IMG/VR virus record: IMGVR_UViG_3300001041_000010
Strand: one strand, 5' to 3'
Source of the DNA: an uncultured virus (IMG/VR IMGVR_UViG_3300001041_000010)
Taxonomy: Duplodnaviria; Heunggongvirae; Uroviricota; Caudoviricetes
Length of the DNA: 64,000 nucleotides
Position 1 is the stretch's first letter. Each line of letters starts with the position of its first letter. This document shows positions 933 through 53,912 of this stretch, one piece after another. The notes under the pieces were generated by a model. It had not been told where the DNA came from. It saw only the letters and a program-made list of their open reading frames with translations, and did no database searches. Position numbers and translations under genes: made by a program.

Positions 933-3900
933 ATGAGTTCAACTATGTATGAAACCGCCATGACAACGAACGGGAATTCTTCGAGTGGTAATAACGTGCC
1001 ATTCGGAATCATTCAACCCGTTACGGTAACATGGACTCGCACAAATCAATATAAAATCTATGGATTAAGAATCATGCGTCAGAATAGCGGAACCGGCGAG
1101 ACAACGGTAGCAAGCTATGGATTAGTTACCGGTACAGCATCAAGTCATACGTTTCCATATATCTCTTCAATGAGTCTTGAAGCCTATAAGGGCTATACGT
1201 ATTACTGGCAAGTTCGAGTTGGAGAGAGTATGAGTAGTTTTGGAGATTGGAGCGTACCAGTTTATTTTACAGTTCCCACGGCTCCACCTAAGCCCGATCT
1301 ACTTAATTACAATGGACTGACTAGTGCAACGCCTGAAATAGGCTACACTCAAGGTCTCACATTTTCTTGGAACTATAATGAATACGACGGTTATGAACAG
1401 GCGGCCTTTAGACTCTTAGTTGCCGGACAATGGACTCCATGGATTCTTAGTTCAAATACTAGCTATACACATAGTGGTGTTGGTATATCGACGAATACTG
1501 TTCATTCATGGCAGGTTATGGTGCGGGATACTATTGGTCTAGAAAGTCTAATCTCTAAACAAGGTTATTTTAAGGTCATTACGTCTGTCATCAGTAATCC
1601 TACAAGCTATAATGGAACATCATTAATTCCAGACCCCTGTGATACATTGACTCCAACGTTAACTTGGGACTGTATTGATCCGTCAGATACCGGTAAGACA
1701 CAAGGCTTTTTCAAGGTTGAGATGTTCTCTGGTAGCTATGGAAGTATAATTTATACTCAGACCTCTGGCTGGATTAATAGTTCTATCAATAGCTATATGA
1801 TTGATGAGACGTTCCCTATTAAACTACTTGGAGGCGTTAAATACACTTGGCGTATTACATTGAAGACTCCAGGCGGCAGTCAAGGTCCTACGAGCCCATG
1901 GGTTAGCTTTAAAACGAGCGATGCCTTAGTTAATCATCCGCCGAGTGCCACGTTAGTAAATTACAATGGATCTTCTCCTTCTAGTCCTGTACTTGCTCAA
2001 GATACAACGCCGATTCTAACCTGGGATTATACTGATCCAGATAATGATCCACAAGGTTCTTATTCTGTCCGTGTCTACAATGCTTCAGGCGTATTAATTT
2101 CCTCACAGGGATGGACAGGAAGTTCTAATGATTACTTTAAGGTTCCTGATTCTCTATTAAATACAGGGACTATATATCATTGGAATGTCCAAGTTAAAGA
2201 TAGTCGTGGCCTTACGAGTCAAGTATCTCCTATGGGATATTTTAAAACACCGGGCGTTCCTGTTACCTTTGTTGTAACGCCGAATAACTTAAATGGATCT
2301 GTCGGTAGTCCTGCAGCCTGTAATACCTTATTGGCTCCAATATTCAAATGGACTTTTACTGGAGCAACATCTCAAACAGCCTTTAGAGTAATAATCTATA
2401 ATGATCAGGGAGCTGTAGTTAGAGATACTAAGTTAATAAGTTCTTCAGCGGCGACCTATACGGCTACGAATTTAAAACTTGATCCACTAACAGTCTATTC
2501 CTGGACAGTACAGCTTAAGGATCCAAAATCAAATATGAGCTTAACAAGTTTCCCAGTTTACTTTAAGACCATTGATCGACCCCATACTAAACCAACTGTA
2601 AGTCCTACGAGCTTCTTGGGAACCTTAGCATCACCTAAGGATTGCACGACGTTAAATCCTACGTTTACTTGGACTTACAAAGATACTGACAATGATCCAC
2701 AGTCTGGTTTTAAGGTCTTAATTTATAAGGTTGGTAATACAACGCCTGTTAGTGCGTCGACTGATGCTATAGATTATGAACCAAGTACTCTTAAATACTA
2801 CACACCTAAGGCCTCTTCTTTAGAGTACAACACATTGTACTACTGGACGGTTCAAGTTAAAGATAATCAAGATGATGAGAGTCTCGTAAGTTCTCAAAAC
2901 TATTTCAAGACTCTACCTTCAATCGTTAACCATGTGCCGGTAATTATCTTGTCAAATTATAATGGTGATGAGTCTGAAGTATCAAGTTGTGACAATACGA
3001 TTCCCAGCTTAGCTTGGGAATATGAAGATCCCGACAATGATGTACAGTACAACTATAAAGTAGATATCTTCAGTAGTAGTAATACCCTTGTTCATACGAG
3101 CGGCACAGTTACTAGTTCGGCTCTTCGTTATGTTGTTCCTTTCGGTAAACTAGCACCAAGCACTACGTATCATTGGACTGTAACAGTAAGTGATAAGCGC
3201 GGCGCTAAAGGCTCACCGGTTCGCAGTGGCTATTTCAAAACCGGAACACCTCCTCCTAACGCAGCTCCTGTCGTTGTTCCTACGAGTTACAAAGGAACGA
3301 AGCTTGAGCCGGCAACTAGTACAACCCTGAAGCCGGTCTTAACTTGGGAATATACTGACGCAGACAATGATGTACAGGGTGCTTATCATGTTCAAGTCTT
3401 TACAGCTTCAGGGACACGAATTAAAGATTCTGGATGGATTACTAGTTCTGCTAAAACCTATACGGTGCCCAATGGAATTGTTGCTGGAACCGTCTATTAC
3501 TGGATCCTTCAAGTTAAGGATAAAAACAGTAGTGGAGAAGTCAGTATCATGACAGATCCTTGTTATTTTAAGTATAGTAATGAAGCTGCTAATACTCCTC
3601 CTGTCGTAACGCCAACAAGCTATACTGGTACCTCGGCAGCTCCTTCTGTGTCTAGTACTCTATTACCAACCTTGACATGGAGTTATAGCGATAAGGAAAA
3701 GAATCCACAGAAAACCTATACGGTTGTTATTAGGAATTCAGATGGTGTTGAGGTAATCAATACGGGAGCTATCACAAGTCAGAATCGTTACTATTCTGTT
3801 CCAAGTGCTAGTCGTCTACTTGAAGGTACGAATTATAACTGGAAAGTATCTGTAACGGATTCCACCGGGGCGGCGGCTGATGGTAGAGTATGTTATTTCA

Positions 3901-6900
3901 AAACCACGGGTACTAGTACAGTAGCTTCTCCTGATAAACCTGGACTAACTAGTTGTTATGGTACACTTTCTAATCCTACAGAAACAACTACGAAACCCAC
4001 GTTAACATGGACATATCATCATTCAAAGAATGTTCCACAAGGCTCTTACAAGCTGACGGTTTGCGCTGCTACGACAAATGCTACGGTCATTGATATTCCG
4101 TGGACATCCGGTGCCGCAACATCATATGATGTTACCTCTACAGTATTGAGTGAAGATGTAATGTACTACTGGAAGATTCAAGTCAAAGATACAAGTGGGC
4201 GTATGAGTCCTATAAGTTCTAATGGATATTTTAAGCCTACCTCAACTGAGATAAACAACCCTCCGACTGTTGTACTTTCAAGTTTCTGCGGAGAAACCAA
4301 AGAAGATCCTGATGCCTGTACGACTTTAACACCTGTACTATCCTGGGCCTATACGGATGCCGATAACGATATACAAAAATCCTTTAACGTAGGCATCATT
4401 GATGTTGAGACAGATGCCGTAGTGTATGATACTGGCATTGCGAATAGCCTATCTAAGAATACGGTCGTACCGGCAAACAAACTCACCAGTGGAAGAGTAT
4501 ACTCCTGGTATGTTACGGTATTTGATTCTAAGGGTAATAGCGGAGTAAGTTCAAAAGGATACTTTAAACCTATTTTTAATAGAGTACCTGTTGTCGTTAC
4601 GGCAAATTACAATGGACCTATTAACGCTCCTGTTATTTCTCCATCATATACTCCACTCTTCATTTGGAAGTACTCTGATCTTGATCGAGATATTCAAGTG
4701 TCGTACGTCGTTGATGTCTATAGTACGGCTGGAGTCTTGGTTTCGACGAGTGGCGCAATAGAGGATGAGCGGTATTATCATCTATTGACAACACCCTTGG
4801 CTGGAAATACAAGTTACTACTGGAAAGTTACCGTAACGGATTCTCAAGGAGGAGAAAGTGTTACGACTGCTCCTAGCTACTTTAAGACAACCGGTACTAA
4901 CAATAGTTTCCCAGTGGCTATTCCTAATAACTACAATGGCGATGTCACAAGTCCTAAGGAATGTCTCACCTTAACTCCTGCATTGACCTGGGATTATATC
5001 GATGCCGGTAAGAATCCACAAACATCGTATCTGGCTCAGATCTATGATTCTACCGGAACCATTGTATATAGTTCAAATTGGAAAACCAGTTCAGAGCAAT
5101 TCTGTATCACGAACGTTCCATTAACTGTAGGTACGCTTTACTATTGGGATATCTCAGTTAAGAATAGCAACAACATTCAGAGCCCTGTAGGTATCAAGGC
5201 TTACTTTAAACCAGTAGCTAGTACAAACAAAGCTCCTGATAAGCCAATCTTAACAAGCTATAATGGAACCGTGTCAACAGCCGTAATTTGCAACACATTG
5301 ATTCCTAAATTAAACTGGAGCTATTATGATCAAAACAATGATCCCGAGGGAGACTCCTTAGTTACGGTTTATGATTCAATCACGGGAGACTTAGTTTACT
5401 CTTCGAACTGGGTAAGTGGCGGTATCAAGGAGATCACGGTGCCCTCTGGAAAGATCCCTAATGCTAACAATACCTATAAATGGTGCGTTATCGTTAAGGA
5501 TAATAAAGGCCTAATAAGCCCTATGAGTAATTACGGTTACTTCTTCACAAGGGCAGCAACCAATACCTTACCTATTGTTACTCCGGCTAGTTATGCTGGC
5601 ACATTTGCTTCACCCTATTCTGCATCAACTCTAACACCGTCGTTGACCTGGACTTACTATCAAGCACAAAATAGTGATCAAGCGATGTTTAACATCATCG
5701 TATCAGACAATAGTAACACCATAGTCTGGGATTCGAATTGGGTTGTTGGTAGCGATGTAATGATTCAAGTGCCAGAGTCTAAGTTACTCGTGTCAGTCGT
5801 CTATCACTGGGTGATTCAGGTTAAAGATACGAACGGTAATCTAAGCAAAGTATCTGACCCGGTCTATTTCAAAACGGTTCTTGGTACGTCTCCCGTGGCA
5901 AGCCCAACTAATTTCAATGGAATTATCACAAACCCTGCTGCTTGCGATACCACATCTCCAAATTTGACATGGTCTTATTATCAAGCTCAGTCGAATCTAC
6001 AGGCGTCCTACTGCGTTTCCGTATACAATAGCAGTTTAGGGGTCGAGTATACTTCCGGCTGGACTGACGGCACTGCAACAACCGTTGTCGCTGGACCACT
6101 GGATTCGAATGAAACCTATCATTGGACCATCCAAGTCAAGGATACCACGGGTAACATGAGCGTTATTGATAAGCATGGTTATTTCAAGACACCCGAGAAC
6201 ACCAATAATCCTATCGTAACTTTAGAAAGCGATAATGGATCATTAGCTACTCCGTTTATTGATCAAAAATCCATTCCTAATTTCATGTTCCGTTATGTTC
6301 ATCCCTTAGCAAAGGATGCTAAGAAAAGCGTAATAACAATTTATGACGCTAGTAATACGGTTGTCTTCACTCGGACCGATACGGATACAATATATAGTCC
6401 ATGTGGAATCAGCTCCGGAATTGCCTTTACGCTAACTAAAGACGTCGTCTATCATTGGACAGTTGAAGTAACGGATGTAGACGATAACGTTGGAACCAGT
6501 AAGGCGGGCTACTTTAAACTAGCTCAAGGCAATCCAATTAGGGTTGCTGCTAAGTCTTACAATGGAACACAAGCTGCTCCTGCAGGATGTACGGGTTGTG
6601 TTTTATTTCCACCTGCTCTAACCTGGAGTTATATTGATCCCGTTAATAAGCCACAAGCTGCTTATAACGTCACGCTTTATAACGATCTTGGTGTTGTTAT
6701 CTATAATTCTGATTGGGTAACAAGCGCTTCTAAGTCTCGTACTATACCAAGTGGTAAACTAGTAGCCGGAACTACCTATCATTGGACGGTTCAAGTTAAG
6801 AACACTCTAGGTACGCTAAGTCCAAATAGTGATTTTGCTTACTTCCGAACAGAAGGTGGCACGGTTGTCTCGAATGCTTCGGTAACACTCATGACTTGTA

Positions 6901-7322
6901 ATGGAACTCTAACTACCCCAATTGTTACTATTCCAGACGATACGGACGTTACTATTGGCTGGAAGTATAATTGCAATACAGCCGTCAATGTCGCTAGTAC
7001 GACTTTAATAATCTATGATCCTAGTGACACGGTTGTTTGGACTAAAGATGTTGTGGCCTCAATGATTCCCGGTGATAGCGCAGTAGAACCTGCTGCAGTA
7101 TCTTTCTTTACTGAAGATGTTGTCTATCATCTTACGGCCGAAGTAACGGACGTCAATGGTAAGAAGACTATCTCTACTCCGGGTTATTTTACGGTTGAAC
7201 CCGCTGTTGTTGTTGAACCGACGATCACCTTATTAAGTCCTCTCGGAACCTTGTCTAGTCCATTATCAGTTGCCAATCCTGTAGATCATGTAGTTCATTT
7301 CACCTATCGTTATAATGATTAA
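933..7322 (+). CDS. Giant (2129 aa) Ig/FN3-like repeat virion protein (fibre/adhesin): 19 repeats of about 110 aa plus a truncated 20th
   Basis: Repeat YNG..P..C.TL.P.L.W.Y.D...Q..Y.V.IY...SGW..S...Y.W.VQVKD..G..S....YFK, resembling GH78 N-terminal Ig/FN3 modules; RBS aggagg. Confidence 0.8.
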   Translation: MSSTMYETAMTTNGNSSSGNNVPFGIIQPVTVTWTRTNQYKIYGLRIMRQNSGTGETTVASYGLVTGTASSHTFPYISSMSLEAYKGYTYYWQVRVGESMSSFGDWSVPVYFTVPTAPPKPDLLNYNGLTSATPEIGYTQGLTFSWNYNEYDGYEQAAFRLLVAGQWTPWILSSNTSYTHSGVGISTNTVHSWQVMVRDTIGLESLISKQGYFKVITSVISNPTSYNGTSLIPDPCDTLTPTLTWDCIDPSDTGKTQGFFKVEMFSGSYGSIIYTQTSGWINSSINSYMIDETFPIKLLGGVKYTWRITLKTPGGSQGPTSPWVSFKTSDALVNHPPSATLVNYNGSSPSSPVLAQDTTPILTWDYTDPDNDPQGSYSVRVYNASGVLISSQGWTGSSNDYFKVPDSLLNTGTIYHWNVQVKDSRGLTSQVSPMGYFKTPGVPVTFVVTPNNLNGSVGSPAACNTLLAPIFKWTFTGATSQTAFRVIIYNDQGAVVRDTKLISSSAATYTATNLKLDPLTVYSWTVQLKDPKSNMSLTSFPVYFKTIDRPHTKPTVSPTSFLGTLASPKDCTTLNPTFTWTYKDTDNDPQSGFKVLIYKVGNTTPVSASTDAIDYEPSTLKYYTPKASSLEYNTLYYWTVQVKDNQDDESLVSSQNYFKTLPSIVNHVPVIILSNYNGDESEVSSCDNTIPSLAWEYEDPDNDVQYNYKVDIFSSSNTLVHTSGTVTSSALRYVVPFGKLAPSTTYHWTVTVSDKRGAKGSPVRSGYFKTGTPPPNAAPVVVPTSYKGTKLEPATSTTLKPVLTWEYTDADNDVQGAYHVQVFTASGTRIKDSGWITSSAKTYTVPNGIVAGTVYYWILQVKDKNSSGEVSIMTDPCYFKYSNEAANTPPVVTPTSYTGTSAAPSVSSTLLPTLTWSYSDKEKNPQKTYTVVIRNSDGVEVINTGAITSQNRYYSVPSASRLLEGTNYNWKVSVTDSTGAAADGRVCYFKTTGTSTVASPDKPGLTSCYGTLSNPTETTTKPTLTWTYHHSKNVPQGSYKLTVCAATTNATVIDIPWTSGAATSYDVTSTVLSEDVMYYWKIQVKDTSGRMSPISSNGYFKPTSTEINNPPTVVLSSFCGETKEDPDACTTLTPVLSWAYTDADNDIQKSFNVGIIDVETDAVVYDTGIANSLSKNTVVPANKLTSGRVYSWYVTVFDSKGNSGVSSKGYFKPIFNRVPVVVTANYNGPINAPVISPSYTPLFIWKYSDLDRDIQVSYVVDVYSTAGVLVSTSGAIEDERYYHLLTTPLAGNTSYYWKVTVTDSQGGESVTTAPSYFKTTGTNNSFPVAIPNNYNGDVTSPKECLTLTPALTWDYIDAGKNPQTSYLAQIYDSTGTIVYSSNWKTSSEQFCITNVPLTVGTLYYWDISVKNSNNIQSPVGIKAYFKPVASTNKAPDKPILTSYNGTVSTAVICNTLIPKLNWSYYDQNNDPEGDSLVTVYDSITGDLVYSSNWVSGGIKEITVPSGKIPNANNTYKWCVIVKDNKGLISPMSNYGYFFTRAATNTLPIVTPASYAGTFASPYSASTLTPSLTWTYYQAQNSDQAMFNIIVSDNSNTIVWDSNWVVGSDVMIQVPESKLLVSVVYHWVIQVKDTNGNLSKVSDPVYFKTVLGTSPVASPTNFNGIITNPAACDTTSPNLTWSYYQAQSNLQASYCVSVYNSSLGVEYTSGWTDGTATTVVAGPLDSNETYHWTIQVKDTTGNMSVIDKHGYFKTPENTNNPIVTLESDNGSLATPFIDQKSIPNFMFRYVHPLAKDAKKSVITIYDASNTVVFTRTDTDTIYSPCGISSGIAFTLTKDVVYHWTVEVTDVDDNVGTSKAGYFKLAQGNPIRVAAKSYNGTQAAPAGCTGCVLFPPALTWSYIDPVNKPQAAYNVTLYNDLGVVIYNSDWVTSASKSRTIPSGKLVAGTTYHWTVQVKNTLGTLSPNSDFAYFRTEGGTVVSNASVTLMTCNGTLTTPIVTIPDDTDVTIGWKYNCNTAVNVASTTLIIYDPSDTVVWTKDVVASMIPGDSAVEPAAVSFFTEDVVYHLTAEVTDVNGKKTISTPGYFTVEPAVVVEPTITLLSPLGTLSSPLSVANPVDHVVHFTYRYND

Positions 7323-7337
7323 GGATCATTAATATTA

Positions 7338-7375
7338 TAGGACTAACTCGTGGGATATCCCACGAGTTAGTCCTA
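7338..7375. repeat. Perfect 38-bp palindrome with no loop, between the giant gene and the next gene
   Basis: taggactaactcgtgggat|atcccacgagttagtccta. Confidence 0.95.
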
Positions 7376-7392
7376 ATACTGGAGGTTATTAA

Positions 7393-7902
7393 ATGCCAAC
7401 AATGTTAAGTTCATTTATCAATATTTACGATAGTAATGATAGCCTAATTAAAACTATGGACTCAGTTGCCGGTACCTCTCGTGATTTTGATTTACTTGTT
7501 GACTGTAGCTTATTAATACTTGATGATACTTATTATTGGATTGCTACTGTTAATGATGGTAGTATCACAACTATCTCTGATAAGAGTTATTTTAAGATTG
7601 CTTCAAATTCACCACCGACTTGTACATTAACGTCTTACAATGGAACCATAGATAATCCAGCACCTATGACAACCTTAGATCCTATATTTACATTAGGCTA
7701 TAATGACCCTGATGGAGATACCGTGGATTCATGGGAAGCTTTTATTTATTCTATTGACGGAACACTTATTGAACACGTAACAGGTGGAACAATCGCGGGT
7801 CATTATCCAAATGGAGATTATTACTGGAATGGAAAAGTTAAAGACAGTCGAGGATTATGGGGTCCTTTGAGTGATAATGGTTACTTTAGAGTAACTGTAT
7901 AG
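7393..7902 (+). CDS. Ig/FN3-repeat protein: C-terminal half-repeat plus 1 full repeat
   Basis: Starts mid-repeat (SSFINIYDS...YYWIATVND...SYFK), then SYNGT...GYFRV; RBS ggagg at 7381. Confidence 0.8.
   Translation: MPTMLSSFINIYDSNDSLIKTMDSVAGTSRDFDLLVDCSLLILDDTYYWIATVNDGSITTISDKSYFKIASNSPPTCTLTSYNGTIDNPAPMTTLDPIFTLGYNDPDGDTVDSWEAFIYSIDGTLIEHVTGGTIAGHYPNGDYYWNGKVKDSRGLWGPLSDNGYFRVTV
7570..7602 (+). repeat. 33-bp direct repeat, copy 1 (copy 2 at 8100-8132, 1 mismatch)
   Basis: actatctc[t/a]gataagagttattttaagattgct, encoding TISDKSYFKIA in both genes. Confidence 0.9.
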
Positions 7903-7913
7903 GAGGCTATTGA

Positions 7914-9119
7914 ATGGCAACAACGATAAGTACCGGGATCAGTATCTTTAAAGTTTCGGACGATAGTGAAGTTTACACTACGATTCCTCTCGTAAATACT
8001 AATCGAGACTTTGACATTACTGTTTCGACTGATCAATTAATCGTAAGTACGGATTATTACTGGACAGCTTCTGTAACGGACACTGTAACTGGAGCTACGA
8101 CTATCTCAGATAAGAGTTATTTTAAGATTGCTCCTATCCCAGGAATCGTTCACTTAACAAACTTTATCGGCACCCAAGAATCGCCCGTCGTTAGTACGAC
8201 ATTAACTCCAACATTAACTTGGAGTTGTAATTACTCACCGATTGATTTAGAGGTTCAGATACGCTTTATAGACGGTGCCGATACCTTCGTCGTCTTCTAC
8301 AATTCACTTGATAAGGACTTAAGATCACTATCAATTGATACGGCTATACCAACAAATATAACGAATGAGACTTCAGGAACACATACAATACCCACGGGTC
8401 CTTTAGTTTTAAAGAATGGTCTGGACTATCGATGGATGGTATGGGGCCATTTCGATCCATCCGTTGCAAGCGTTGAGACGGGATACATCCATATCACCTT
8501 GCCAAATCTTAATCCAAATGTTAGTCTATTAACATTTAACGGAACACAAGGTACTCCGAACGAGTGTAAATATATTAGACCAGTACTATCTTGGCATTAT
8601 ACTGATCCGGAAAACAATCCACAATCCAGCTATATTGTTAATGTCTATGACTCAGATGGCGTTAATGTCTTCCAGACAAACTGGATTAATAGTAGTGCTA
8701 CAAGTGTAACTCTACCAGCCACCACGTTAAATGCTGATAGCCTTTACTATTGGAACGTTCAAGTTATGGACAGTTATAACAATACGAGTGACATTAGTTC
8801 GGATGGTTACTTTATGACCGGTTTACCTCCCACATTGACAAGCTGTAATGGCCTTACGAGCGACGATCCTAATATCGTCAATACGATCCATCCGGTATGG
8901 AGCTGGAGTTATGATGAAGTGTGTTCAGTATTCGATGTAGTCTTTAATGATCCAACAGGCGCTACCGGTAAAATTGAGCAACCGAATATCGATAACACGT
9001 ATACATGCAATGAAGACGGAATAGTATTTGGCACAGTTTATTACTGGTGGGTCTATCTTACTAACGATAGCGGCATGACAAGTTTTCCAAGTGTAAGAGG
9101 TTACTGGAAAGCAGTCTAA
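7914..9119 (+). CDS. Ig/FN3-repeat protein: C-terminal half-repeat plus 3 full repeats
   Basis: Starts mid-repeat (TGISIFKVS...YYWTASVTD...SYFK); RBS aggagg. Confidence 0.8.
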   Translation: MATTISTGISIFKVSDDSEVYTTIPLVNTNRDFDITVSTDQLIVSTDYYWTASVTDTVTGATTISDKSYFKIAPIPGIVHLTNFIGTQESPVVSTTLTPTLTWSCNYSPIDLEVQIRFIDGADTFVVFYNSLDKDLRSLSIDTAIPTNITNETSGTHTIPTGPLVLKNGLDYRWMVWGHFDPSVASVETGYIHITLPNLNPNVSLLTFNGTQGTPNECKYIRPVLSWHYTDPENNPQSSYIVNVYDSDGVNVFQTNWINSSATSVTLPATTLNADSLYYWNVQVMDSYNNTSDISSDGYFMTGLPPTLTSCNGLTSDDPNIVNTIHPVWSWSYDEVCSVFDVVFNDPTGATGKIEQPNIDNTYTCNEDGIVFGTVYYWWVYLTNDSGMTSFPSVRGYWKAV

Positions 9120-9157
9120 TTATCTATGAATAAGATTATTAGGAAAGAAGGATTACG

Positions 9158-11467
9158 ATGAACTCTATACAGCAAGCAAGTGTTGATTTGGAGGAGACTC
9201 AACGTAGGATTATTCTAGAGATTCTAAATCAACAATATACCGATGGAATTATTACAACCGAAGAAGATTATCAAAGTCAACTTCAAGAGATGCTTTCTAA
9301 GGTGAGTTCTAATGAGCCCATCATGCAAGTTAGGGAACAAAGTAATCAGTCGAATCCTAATAACTTCAACCTTAACTTTCAGGAGCTAAGTATTGATATG
9401 GCTACAATCTTTAATCAGATCAACCTAGTGGATAATACCGTGACAAAGCATCAGCAATTAAATCAGGGTGTTATTAACGATATCAAACTTAGAATCCATA
9501 AACTCAACGACGAGCTGGATCGGTTAGAACTTCTAAGTCTATACGGAGATAATTCTGGGATTATCTTAGAAGCCTTTAGGGATGCTAATAACTTTGAGAC
9601 GGATCTTCGCTATTACACGTCGGTACCAACCGGAGGGACTGATCCCGTACCATTAGCTTCGGGCTATATCTCAACACTTGATGTTAATAAAGAAGCAATT
9701 AAGTTACCACTGCTTTATTCAGAGAGCGCCCTGATCGGACCGAGTGGTATTAACCTGGGTAAGATTACTATTACTAAGCAATTGGGTTCTGGGTTTATCC
9801 GTGTTACGAATCCTGAGCATAACATTAATAAGGCCATTGACACGAGTTTTGAAACTTTCTGGTCTGAAACAATATTAACAGAGGCACCTCTAGAGGTGCC
9901 TCTGGACTCCAGCTACTTCGGCATTCAATATGGAGCCCTCTGTGAATTCGAAGTTAACTTTGATGCTCTAATGGTAATCAATGAAATTAGTCTAATGCCC
10001 TTTAGTGAATACCCTATGGATATTGTGGCGATTCGGTTTGATACGACCGACAGCAAGGATACTCCAAACTCCATTATTATTAAGCCGACTCATACTGATG
10101 GTACCGTCTATAATACCTCAACAACTGATCCGGTTATCTTTCAGTTTCCGGATACCTTAGTTAAGCGAGTACGCATTCAACTCAACCAACGTCACTATGT
10201 TCGTACAAATTATATTTCAAATAAGCAAGTGGCCGATGAGCTCGACCGGTGGTTTAATCGCAATACTGCCGTCGATCTAAAGACTGATGGTATCTTTAAT
10301 CCCATTTATACGAATCGAATAACAGTCAATCCATCATGGGTTTACTTTGCTGAAGCTATGAAAAATCTAGATATTAAGGGACTTGATAAGTTATTTAATT
10401 CCGTTCAAGTATCTAAATCACTGACCAAATATCAATATTCATATGGTTTATATAATATAGGAATGAATCGCAATGAGTATGTAAATTGCGGATACTATAT
10501 CTCCAAGCCTATGGATGTCCCAGGTAATATTAAGTCCGTAACATTACTCTCTAATGAAGAACACCCGCTGCCTAGCTCATATGATACAGCGATCACTCAT
10601 GTTGAATATTCTGTAAGTCCTGACGATGGTCTTAATTGGTACAATATTGTACCAATGAATCAATCCACGGTTATAGGAGAGCTCTTAGAGGCTGCTATTC
10701 CTAAGGGAGGTAGTCGACGTAAGGCAATGTTGAGGTTTCCAGTTGATGGAGACATTGATATCTATTGTAATGCCGCATCGACAAGACTTCCTAGTTCTGA
10801 CTATAACTTTGATCCGACTACTCGGACAATAACCTTTGTTAAATATGATGTTTCTAAAACCTATACGGTAAACTATAAACCTAAAGACTCACACGAAGTG
10901 GACTTTATTAAACTACATACTGTAATCAATAAAGTAACTAATCTTCCTGAGGTCTATCCTAATACCGTTACGGAGCGCTTTTTAGGTACTGATCGTAATG
11001 GCTTGATTAACCTAAGTTACTATCCCTTTATTGATAAGGTTAAGTTAAACTCTCAAAGTAAAGACTACGACCCAACGTACCTCAGTTACTCCTACGTTCC
11101 ACTGAAGATCAAATTAATTACGGCCGAAGGTAAACATATCGAACAAAAGACTGATCCGTCAGATACTGGTTTAATCTTTATTACGAATAAAACGGATTAC
11201 ATTAATCCTAACACTAGCTTTCTAGATCCTTTAACTGAAGTCGTAGACTCCAACGGTGTTATCACACTGGAGTATCAGTATCAAGTTATTGGCAATACAA
11301 TACAATTCAATACGTCACTTCCTGCTAACACACAAATTATTATAGAGTATCCTTATATTCTCAAAAACTTAAGAACTCGTGCTATACTTAGACGTACCAT
11401 CAATAACTTTCTTGGGCTTACTCCTATTGTCAATTCTATCACTGTCAATTTCAAATCCTTACTTTAG
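9158..11467 (+). CDS. Virion structural (baseplate/tail-like) protein, coiled coil plus discoidin-like beta domain
   Basis: N-terminal coiled coil; KAIDTSFETFW motif; similar to the next three large ORFs. Confidence 0.55.
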   Translation: MNSIQQASVDLEETQRRIILEILNQQYTDGIITTEEDYQSQLQEMLSKVSSNEPIMQVREQSNQSNPNNFNLNFQELSIDMATIFNQINLVDNTVTKHQQLNQGVINDIKLRIHKLNDELDRLELLSLYGDNSGIILEAFRDANNFETDLRYYTSVPTGGTDPVPLASGYISTLDVNKEAIKLPLLYSESALIGPSGINLGKITITKQLGSGFIRVTNPEHNINKAIDTSFETFWSETILTEAPLEVPLDSSYFGIQYGALCEFEVNFDALMVINEISLMPFSEYPMDIVAIRFDTTDSKDTPNSIIIKPTHTDGTVYNTSTTDPVIFQFPDTLVKRVRIQLNQRHYVRTNYISNKQVADELDRWFNRNTAVDLKTDGIFNPIYTNRITVNPSWVYFAEAMKNLDIKGLDKLFNSVQVSKSLTKYQYSYGLYNIGMNRNEYVNCGYYISKPMDVPGNIKSVTLLSNEEHPLPSSYDTAITHVEYSVSPDDGLNWYNIVPMNQSTVIGELLEAAIPKGGSRRKAMLRFPVDGDIDIYCNAASTRLPSSDYNFDPTTRTITFVKYDVSKTYTVNYKPKDSHEVDFIKLHTVINKVTNLPEVYPNTVTERFLGTDRNGLINLSYYPFIDKVKLNSQSKDYDPTYLSYSYVPLKIKLITAEGKHIEQKTDPSDTGLIFITNKTDYINPNTSFLDPLTEVVDSNGVITLEYQYQVIGNTIQFNTSLPANTQIIIEYPYILKNLRTRAILRRTINNFLGLTPIVNSITVNFKSLL

Positions 11468-31367: not shown

Positions 31368-31416
31368 ACAAATAGCTCACTAGAAGGGAAATACTTCTAG
31401 TGAGCTATTTGTTTTC
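31368..31416 (+). terminator. Terminator at the +/- convergence
   Basis: acaaatagctcactagaag-N7-cttctagtgagctatttgt followed by T-run. Confidence 0.8.
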
Positions 31417-32790: not shown

Positions 32791-32821
32791 AAAGTAGCTA
32801 GGGATTATCCCTAGCTACTTT
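32791..32821. terminator. Bidirectional terminator (15-1-15 palindrome)
   Basis: aaagtagctagggat-t-atccctagctacttt between convergent genes. Confidence 0.8.
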
Positions 32822-53845: not shown

Positions 53846-53874
53846 TAGTATACCATATTGTAACGCAATTATAC
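53846..53874 (-). promoter_or_regulatory. Promoter (sigF/G-type or extended -10)
   Basis: GTATA-N14-TGGTATACTA. Confidence 0.5.
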
Positions 53875-53912
53875 AGATAACCCGTGCTTAATTAAGCACG
53901 GGTTATCTGTAT
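53871..53912. repeat. Perfect 42-bp palindrome
   Basis: atacagataacccgtgcttaa|ttaagcacgggttatctgtat. Confidence 0.95.

Follow-up and report, generated by a model that had tools for sequence, protein, structure and literature searches.

The window analysed here, the opening 64 kb of a virus record of 117,365 bp in IMG/VR (IMGVR_UViG_3300001041_000010, estimated to be ~52% complete), carries a giant fibre gene followed on the same strand by two much smaller genes, which we call the short and the long tip gene. Their products are P0001, P0002 and P0003, respectively. The giant protein is an array of immunoglobulin (Ig)-like repeats that stops part-way through its twentieth repeat, and each of the two tip proteins opens with the portion of a repeat that the giant protein lacks. 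In what follows the cut end of the giant protein is referred to as the tail and the opening portion of each tip protein as the head; the coordinates of all features are collected in Table 1. The sequencing runs in which this phage occurs are labelled as groundwater and sediment metagenomes, and no RNA run is listed among them.

Cutting P0001 at a recurring YFK motif yields the 19 complete units and leaves a 42-residue remainder. We built a repeat hidden Markov model (HMM) from units 2-19, and it aligns over its full length with each of these units and over positions 46-109 with unit 1, while giant residues 2090-2129 align to the short initial segment given in Table 1. The Pfam family concerned is PF25788 (Ig_Rha78A_N), which the giant protein matches over 13 stretches with 420.6 bits, where the gathering score is 27.4 bits. 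Structure models were made with AlphaFold2 (AF2) using alignments of the window's own repeats. The model of the end of the giant protein shows domain 19 complete and, after it, no more than two strands, which span giant residues 2097-2102 and 2124-2128 (125-130 and 152-156 in model numbering), with predicted local distance difference test (pLDDT) values of 71-84.

The repeat HMM also describes the tip proteins. Residues 7-68 of P0002 and 7-71 of P0003 both correspond to positions 48-109, and at their C-termini both proteins carry a complete repeat. The first domain after the P0003 head is divergent and matches the HMM at positions 9-42 only. Ig-like repeats are the sole Pfam family in P0003 (58.4 bits against PF25788) and no family is matched in P0002 at E<=0.01, where the repeat HMM scores 56.4 bits over residues 71-166 and 24.6 bits over residues 7-68. 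The AF2 model of P0002 (pLDDT 90.3) places strands C, C', F and G only in residues 1-68 (at 6-13, 18-23, 46-54 and 59-68), with the position of strands A-B left empty and a full domain following; the model resembles tandem FN3/Ig pairs in the PDB. All three genes, the giant one included, share the same arrangement of ribosome-binding site (RBS) and start codon, GGAGG-N7-ATG. A strain variant of the short tip protein, P0039 (178 aa, on a 3.6-kb contig), has Q in place of the P0002 TAG stop (7900-7902) and so extends nine residues past it, across the P0003 start in a different frame; its further changes are V25I, A26T and D110A.

Table 1. Features of the giant fibre gene, the spacer and the two tip genes, in window coordinates.
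Feature	Coordinates	Strand	Remarks
Giant fibre gene P0001, 2129 aa	933..7322	+	19 complete Ig_Rha78A_N/FN3-like repeats, followed by the A-B strands of the twentieth
N-terminal third of repeat 20 (giant residues 2088-2129), ending ...HFTYRYND	7194..7319	+	HMM positions 3-39 of 109
TAA stop of the giant gene	7320..7322	+	Lies inside the loop of a small hairpin (8 bp, 7313-7331)
Spacer, 70 nt	7323..7392	+	4 further giant-frame stops, 2 P0002-frame stops, third frame open
Perfect 38-nt palindrome	7338..7375		Inverted-repeat scan; RNA hairpin of 17 bp, no T-run
P0002 RBS, GGAGG	7381..7385	+	7 nt 5' of ATG
Short tip gene P0002, 169 aa	7393..7902	+	Head aa 1-72 (strands C-G), then complete repeat aa 71-166
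P0003 RBS, GGAGG	7902..7906	+	7 nt 5' of ATG
Long tip gene P0003, 401 aa	7914..9119	+	Head aa 1-75, then one divergent and two typical repeats

Because the tail occupies positions 3-39 of the repeat HMM and both heads occupy positions 48-109, tail and heads are complementary, and exactly so, with the cut falling in the B-C loop. The loop length fits as well: by hand count, 14 residues lead from FTY in the tail to IYD in P0002 or to IFK in P0003, the same number that leads from FRY to IYD in the intact repeat 17. Elsewhere in the 117-kb record there is no PF25788 match outside 1188-8825, and the giant tail is therefore the only visible partner for both heads in those 117 kb. An earlier sequence-only reading of this stretch had described the giant protein as 19 complete repeats plus the start of a twentieth (...HFTYRYND), the open reading frames (ORFs) at 7393 and 7914 as each beginning with the rest of a repeat behind an RBS of its own and adding one or three further domains, the first ORF as ending on a complete repeat, the joined spacing as that of repeat 17, and the giant C-terminus as the only visible partner of the head encoded from 7914. 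All of this is borne out by the motif cutting, the translations, the repeat HMM and the Pfam scan of the record, with the joined spacing holding for both partners and the first of the three P0003 domains being the divergent one.

The two heads are related to each other. They are 49% identical, 13 of their 36 identical residues are written with different codons, both start in the same phase (M-x-T-x-x-S), and 13 of the 15 nt from RBS to start are the same in the two genes. Collinear homology between P0002 and P0003 is limited to P0002 residues 1-104 (44%), beyond which the distal parts diverge; a conserved head with a diverged distal part is the pattern expected if the head fits a shared partner and the distal parts are free to change. 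Since the heads are paralogous, in the same phase and preceded by near-identical stretches from RBS to start, the split would predate an old duplication. The simplest history is thus one in which the repeat was cut first, the distal gene was then duplicated together with its RBS, and a long divergence followed with both copies staying open. The last 12 codons of the heads (7570-7605 and 8094-8129; TTISDKSYFKIA) encode identical protein and share 34 of 36 nt, compared with 59% nucleotide identity (130/222) over the whole head, which suggests that the G strand is under strong constraint or that gene conversion has occurred.

Strain variation shows how the split has fared more recently. The protein collection contains full-length giant alleles in four versions (3, 4 and 24 amino-acid differences; one 2125-aa start variant), and every one of them, like a 966-aa piece, has ...HFTYRYND as its C-terminus. 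Fragments of 897 and 487 aa, from broken assemblies, stop short of the C-terminus. These three partial calls (P0034, 897 aa; P0035, 966 aa; P0037, 487 aa) come from some ~225-kb public assemblies and include one out-of-frame tail and one short N-terminal deletion; either the repeat array has caused assembly or frameshift errors, or they are real broken alleles. P0002 and P0003 are on record in 18 contigs each. A strain diverged by 1-2% in run X5, from a second study, retains the stop, the palindrome, the RBS and the ATG. Over 6600-9300, where X5 lacks cover at 7722-8334 and in some shorter gaps, it differs by 15 substitutions, 10 of them synonymous and five not (V>I three times, A>T and E>K). 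The changes comprise three synonymous and two V>I in the giant tail and four synonymous plus V25I and A26T in the P0002 head, the last two also being present in P0039; P0002 and P0003 together have six synonymous changes to two nonsynonymous. Because the strain alleles keep both stop and start, the changes are mostly synonymous and the head duplication came after the cut, the split is, by these comparisons, an old and maintained gene fission and neither an artefact nor a fresh break.

The best reading of this arrangement, drawn from a single phage population and one to which we give roughly even chances, is that tail and head complete a domain non-covalently and that two tips compete for the same site. 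One unit of a tandem Ig-like array was cut long ago at the B-C loop and so divided between two genes. The two-strand A-B piece at the end of the giant protein would insert into the five-strand C-G head of a separate protein and rebuild one beta-sandwich, so that no peptide bond would be needed to attach a distal module to the fibre. After the split, the gene for the distal part was duplicated along with its RBS, and two modules, by now diverged, are the outcome: a short one with one extra domain and a long one with three. Their heads are of one kind, and they would be rivals for the lone socket at the fibre end. The resulting fibre would consist of 19 beads, one composite bead and one or three more. 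We infer that the tips would bind and compete in this manner, and any part of theirs in host recognition would likewise be conjectural. The sequence-only reading had likewise proposed strand complementation with interchangeable tips, and the part of it that stands firm is the maintained split with two paralogous, same-phase heads, each behind an RBS; the complementation itself is putative.

Other explanations place the split at the level of translation or of assembly. Ribosomes might shift frame or hop across the spacer, in the manner of T4 gene 60, to make one fused protein, and the site is not without attraction for such an event: the last sense codon, GAT, lies with the TAA stop in the small hairpin, a very stable hairpin comes next, and one frame is open through the spacer. 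This resembles the take-off site of the T4 gene 60 bypass, in which a take-off codon before a stop in a hairpin is paired with a matching landing codon. However, the open frame, -1 relative to the giant gene (open over 7319-7405, with a stop at about 7403-7405), is neither that of the giant gene, with five stops in 7320-7376 including its own, nor that of P0002, with stops at 7330 and 7390. As it is the only one open through the spacer, a fusion of the giant protein to P0002 needs two shifts; a programmed -1 or +1 frameshift runs into the P0002-frame stops, and by eye we saw no slippery site of the form X XXY YYZ before the giant stop, for which reason we read nothing into the open frame. Nor does a gene 60-type bypass fit, since landings at the GAT or GAC codons at 7324, 7341 and 7354 reach stops and the next, at 7429, would remove strand C, leaving none that opens P0002 with this strand intact. 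P0003, moreover, starts 11 nt after the P0002 stop in a different frame and with the same kind of head, so that no recoding scheme accounts for it. Recoding is therefore very improbable, and as far as sequence can tell it is excluded. Assembly errors at 7322-7393, a concern raised by the sequence-only reading, could in principle have arisen at the palindrome: in runs X1, X4 and X5 alike the Logan contigs break within 7338-7375, none bridges it with 31 nt on each side, and one low-depth X5 contig folds back there. The same contigs nevertheless cover each flank of the palindrome separately, with no indel and with the giant stop unchanged. As the stop lies 18 nt before the palindrome and the RBS and ATG of P0002 lie after it, both gene ends are independent of how the palindrome was assembled. 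A 34-nt palindrome contig occurs at double depth, which is the depth that a palindrome present once should have at k=31, and the depths of the flanks match (109 vs 110; 227 vs 241). That the flanks adjoin is supported by longer assemblies, the window being identical over 7100-8000 to a 229,618-bp metagenome contig from a possibly related sample. An artefact of this kind is accordingly very improbable.

The remaining alternatives accept the split as real and differ on what the pieces do. Insertion of a stop and a hairpin could have truncated a longer fibre gene, leaving the downstream ORFs untranslated or as useless leftovers, and the spacer does look like an inserted unit (stop, palindrome, RBS, start), in an array whose ancestral state has no relatives to show it. 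Decay of this sort would nevertheless sit badly with strong RBSs on both downstream ORFs at the spacing used by the giant gene, with a head that was duplicated along with its RBS and whose two copies are both open at 49% identity with synonymous differences, and with the preponderance of synonymous strain changes in P0002 and P0003 (6 vs 2); we consider it improbable. A less drastic possibility accepts a genuine fission and three functional genes but has the heads not docking on the giant tail. The small proteins might instead complete their heads by self-association, by strand swapping or with a partner encoded in the part of the genome not covered here, or they might belong to another site on the virion; the tail would then be a tolerated remnant. 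The exact complementarity of tail and heads in phase and loop length speaks against this, as do a tail that is identical in all giant alleles and pieces reaching the C-terminus and shows three synonymous and two V>I changes between strains, and the lack of any other PF25788 piece in the 117 kb; we think it unlikely, but a serious contender. Several observations do weigh against domain completion and its proposed role. About 52% of the genome is covered, and a further partner elsewhere in a genome of ~225-230 kb is possible. AF2 is confident about the P0002 head without a partner, and that tail and head bind is something we infer from their sequences; a complex prediction for giant residues 2084-2129 with P0002 residues 1-75, run with no alignments and no controls, scored 0.18 and 0.16, where the mark is 0.34, and speaks neither for nor against binding. 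Tip expression could be reduced by the strong hairpin that follows the giant gene, the single-nucleotide polymorphisms of X5 come from contigs with a depth of just 3.5-5.5, and in the collections searched we saw no relative beyond strain level. Finally, a receptor-binding role of the tips is conjecture, because Pfam finds nothing but Ig-like repeats in P0002 and P0003.

The spacer may have a function of its own. The region 7300-7410 folds with -40.7 kcal/mol (z -7.2). A promoter and terminator scan gave counts no higher than those of shuffled sequences and did not call the palindrome at 7338-7375 an intrinsic terminator. Lying between the giant and the tip genes, it probably acts on the mRNA, as a 3'-end, stability or processing element, and it may set the ratio of shaft to tip. 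Further long perfect hairpins or palindromes lie in intergenic gaps of the window at 53871-53912, 31368-31412 and 32791-32821 (arms of 21, 19 and 15 nt); the four have no common sequence except a GGGAT/ATCCC centre in two of them. Such intergenic hairpins may be transcript-end or processing signals of this phage.

Relatives of the locus were sought in several ways. Searches against phages with blastn (6000-9500) and tblastn (P0002 and giant residues 1863-2129) gave no match. With repeats 4-9 as a 662-aa query, the sole match in an isolated phage was to a hypothetical protein of Brevibacillus phage Emery (21742-22359; 31% identity, 59% cover). A word-indexed protein search among proteins of near length returned only P0002 and P0003 themselves, and a profile of the two heads run against 1.84 billion representatives gave four matches, namely the heads themselves and two weak internal ones. 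A locus search of viral contigs based on P0002 gave 13 pattern matches, none of which was confirmed, and for the neighbouring gp171-like protein alone, described below, seven such matches gave none. An alignment-based locus search (A1) recovered 13 viral and 13 metagenome loci. The ORFs upstream were inspected by eye at 16 of these 26 loci and included no giant Ig_Rha78A_N gene and no starts like those of P0002 or P0003; the other 10 were duplicates, short fragments or the same phage. Where the neighbouring gene led to other phages, the nearest of them, one at 39% identity among them, carry a gene set like that of the Bacillus jumbo phage 0305phi8-36 instead of this fibre.

The neighbourhood of the split identifies the kind of phage to which it belongs. 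Downstream, at 9158-11467, is encoded a 769-aa protein with 33% identity over its full length to the virion protein gp171 of 0305phi8-36, and the genes after it encode homologues of the PHROG families of gp172-175; next come genes for a primase and a DnaB-like helicase, and the whole order is that found in 0305phi8-36. Because of the gp171 match and the matching gene order downstream, this is, judged by gene content, an uncultured and distant member of the 0305phi8-36 lineage. Upstream, the product of the ORF at 237-893 looks like gp168 of 0305phi8-36 at its N-terminus by eye, but with a BLASTP E value of 1.6 it was dropped as evidence of synteny. The 117-kb record and the 229,618-bp metagenome contig (L024) have ends that lie no more than 26 nt apart, a short way upstream of window position 1, which may be a genome terminus or a repeat at which assemblers halt. 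The fibre and baseplate block of 0305phi8-36 (gp163-gp175) has FN3-rich fibre genes in the form of paralogous pairs (gp165/gp166). In contrast to the window, neither 0305phi8-36 nor the 39%-identity relative (L029) has an Ig_Rha78A_N giant or homologues of P0002 and P0003, and by this comparison the giant fibre is lineage-specific. The available part of the comparative paper on 0305phi8-36 reports FN3 domains in gps 163, 165, 166 and 167 and describes no split (PMC2147016). In that phage and its relatives, gp164-like proteins have a conserved strand-like C-terminal tail (for example ...KPTFRLGLEG or ...RPTFSLSVVEG), and the gp165/gp166-like proteins that come next, one or two paralogues with FN3 domains, open at an apparent FN3 strand B (M-x-RRVRL..., M-x-x-RIRLTWNRN...). 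It may be that gp164 and gp165/gp166 represent a parallel split, after strand A and with two alternative partners; Pfam gave no placement for the N-terminal domains of the gp165/gp166-like proteins.

Should the halves bind, fibre ends would be swapped at the level of protein, by a plug and socket derived from one cut Ig-like domain, and this would account for the gain of exchangeable distal modules by long repeat fibres. We would go further, tentatively and with rather more doubt than belief, and suggest that the split domain serves as a universal socket, so that short- and long-tipped fibres are made from one genome and binding to hosts or surfaces is hedged without DNA rearrangement. New tips could then arise by duplicating or importing any gene with the right head. 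For annotators, given binding of the halves, a gene that ends mid-domain next to one that starts mid-domain would become a signature from which joins between virion proteins could be predicted, and the pair would also offer protein engineering a small, natural two-piece Ig scaffold.

Completion of a fold across chains is already known; it is classical in pili and has one structural precedent in phage. Chaperone-usher pilins (Fim, Pap, Caf1) lack the C-terminal G strand, receive the N-terminal extension of another subunit, require a periplasmic chaperone and an usher, and polymerise. They share with our proposal an Ig-like fold that is incomplete in one chain and completed by strands of another to give a non-covalent fibre. 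Here, however, the missing strands are the N-terminal A-B pair, the donor would be a C-terminal tail and the joint would be used once, so the proteins do not fall within chaperone-usher donor-strand complementation. No chaperone or usher was found among seven neighbouring proteins scanned with Pfam, four flanking ones having no Pfam family at all. The analogy with pilus donor-strand exchange drawn in the sequence-only reading is thus a loose one, and no strand is exchanged. A constant fibre part combined with one of two alternative distal parts is also what phages Mu and P1 achieve, with the Gin invertase and G segment in the one and Cin in the other, where an invertase acting on inverted repeats fuses the constant part to alternative tips in the DNA. 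In the present case, by contrast, both tip genes lie on the + strand in the same orientation with starts of their own, and the join would be made at the level of protein, an arrangement unlike a Gin- or Cin-type invertible segment; the inverted-repeat scan covered arms up to 60 nt apart, and no search was made for longer-range repeats or an invertase. Among artificial systems, the engineered complementation of FN3 fragments with high-affinity reassembly, which the title of a 2005 paper by Dutta and colleagues (Protein Sci 14:2838) announces, lends physical plausibility to the proposed joint.

By analogy, BppU and BppA of the Lactococcus phage Tuc2009 are a closer counterpart than pilus donor-strand exchange. 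In the crystal structure, a C-terminal beta-hairpin of 25 residues (BppU residues 296-321) completes one beta-sheet in domain 2 of BppA, and a titin Ig domain can be superposed on the resulting composite (PMC4742702). The two corresponding features are both present in our phage, namely a C-terminal two-strand extension on the giant protein, by HMM alignment and AF2 prediction, and a partner whose Ig-like sandwich lacks strands A-B, by the HMM for both heads and by AF2 for P0002. The likeness is that a C-terminal two-strand piece completes the incomplete Ig-like sandwich of a separately encoded protein, as would be the case here, and the difference is that the incomplete domain lies at the C-terminus of BppA but at the N-terminus of our partners. 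In addition, the split domain described here is a unit of a 20-repeat array and would have two paralogous partners per socket, and the comparison is one of structure. A literature search, made without full texts, found no description of neighbouring fibre genes in a phage that divide an Ig-like domain between them. Because the split domain is one unit of 20 repeats, the sequence itself reveals where the cut was made and what the ancestral state was. What is particular to this phage is that the fission is for this reason evident, and that two paralogous tips face one socket.

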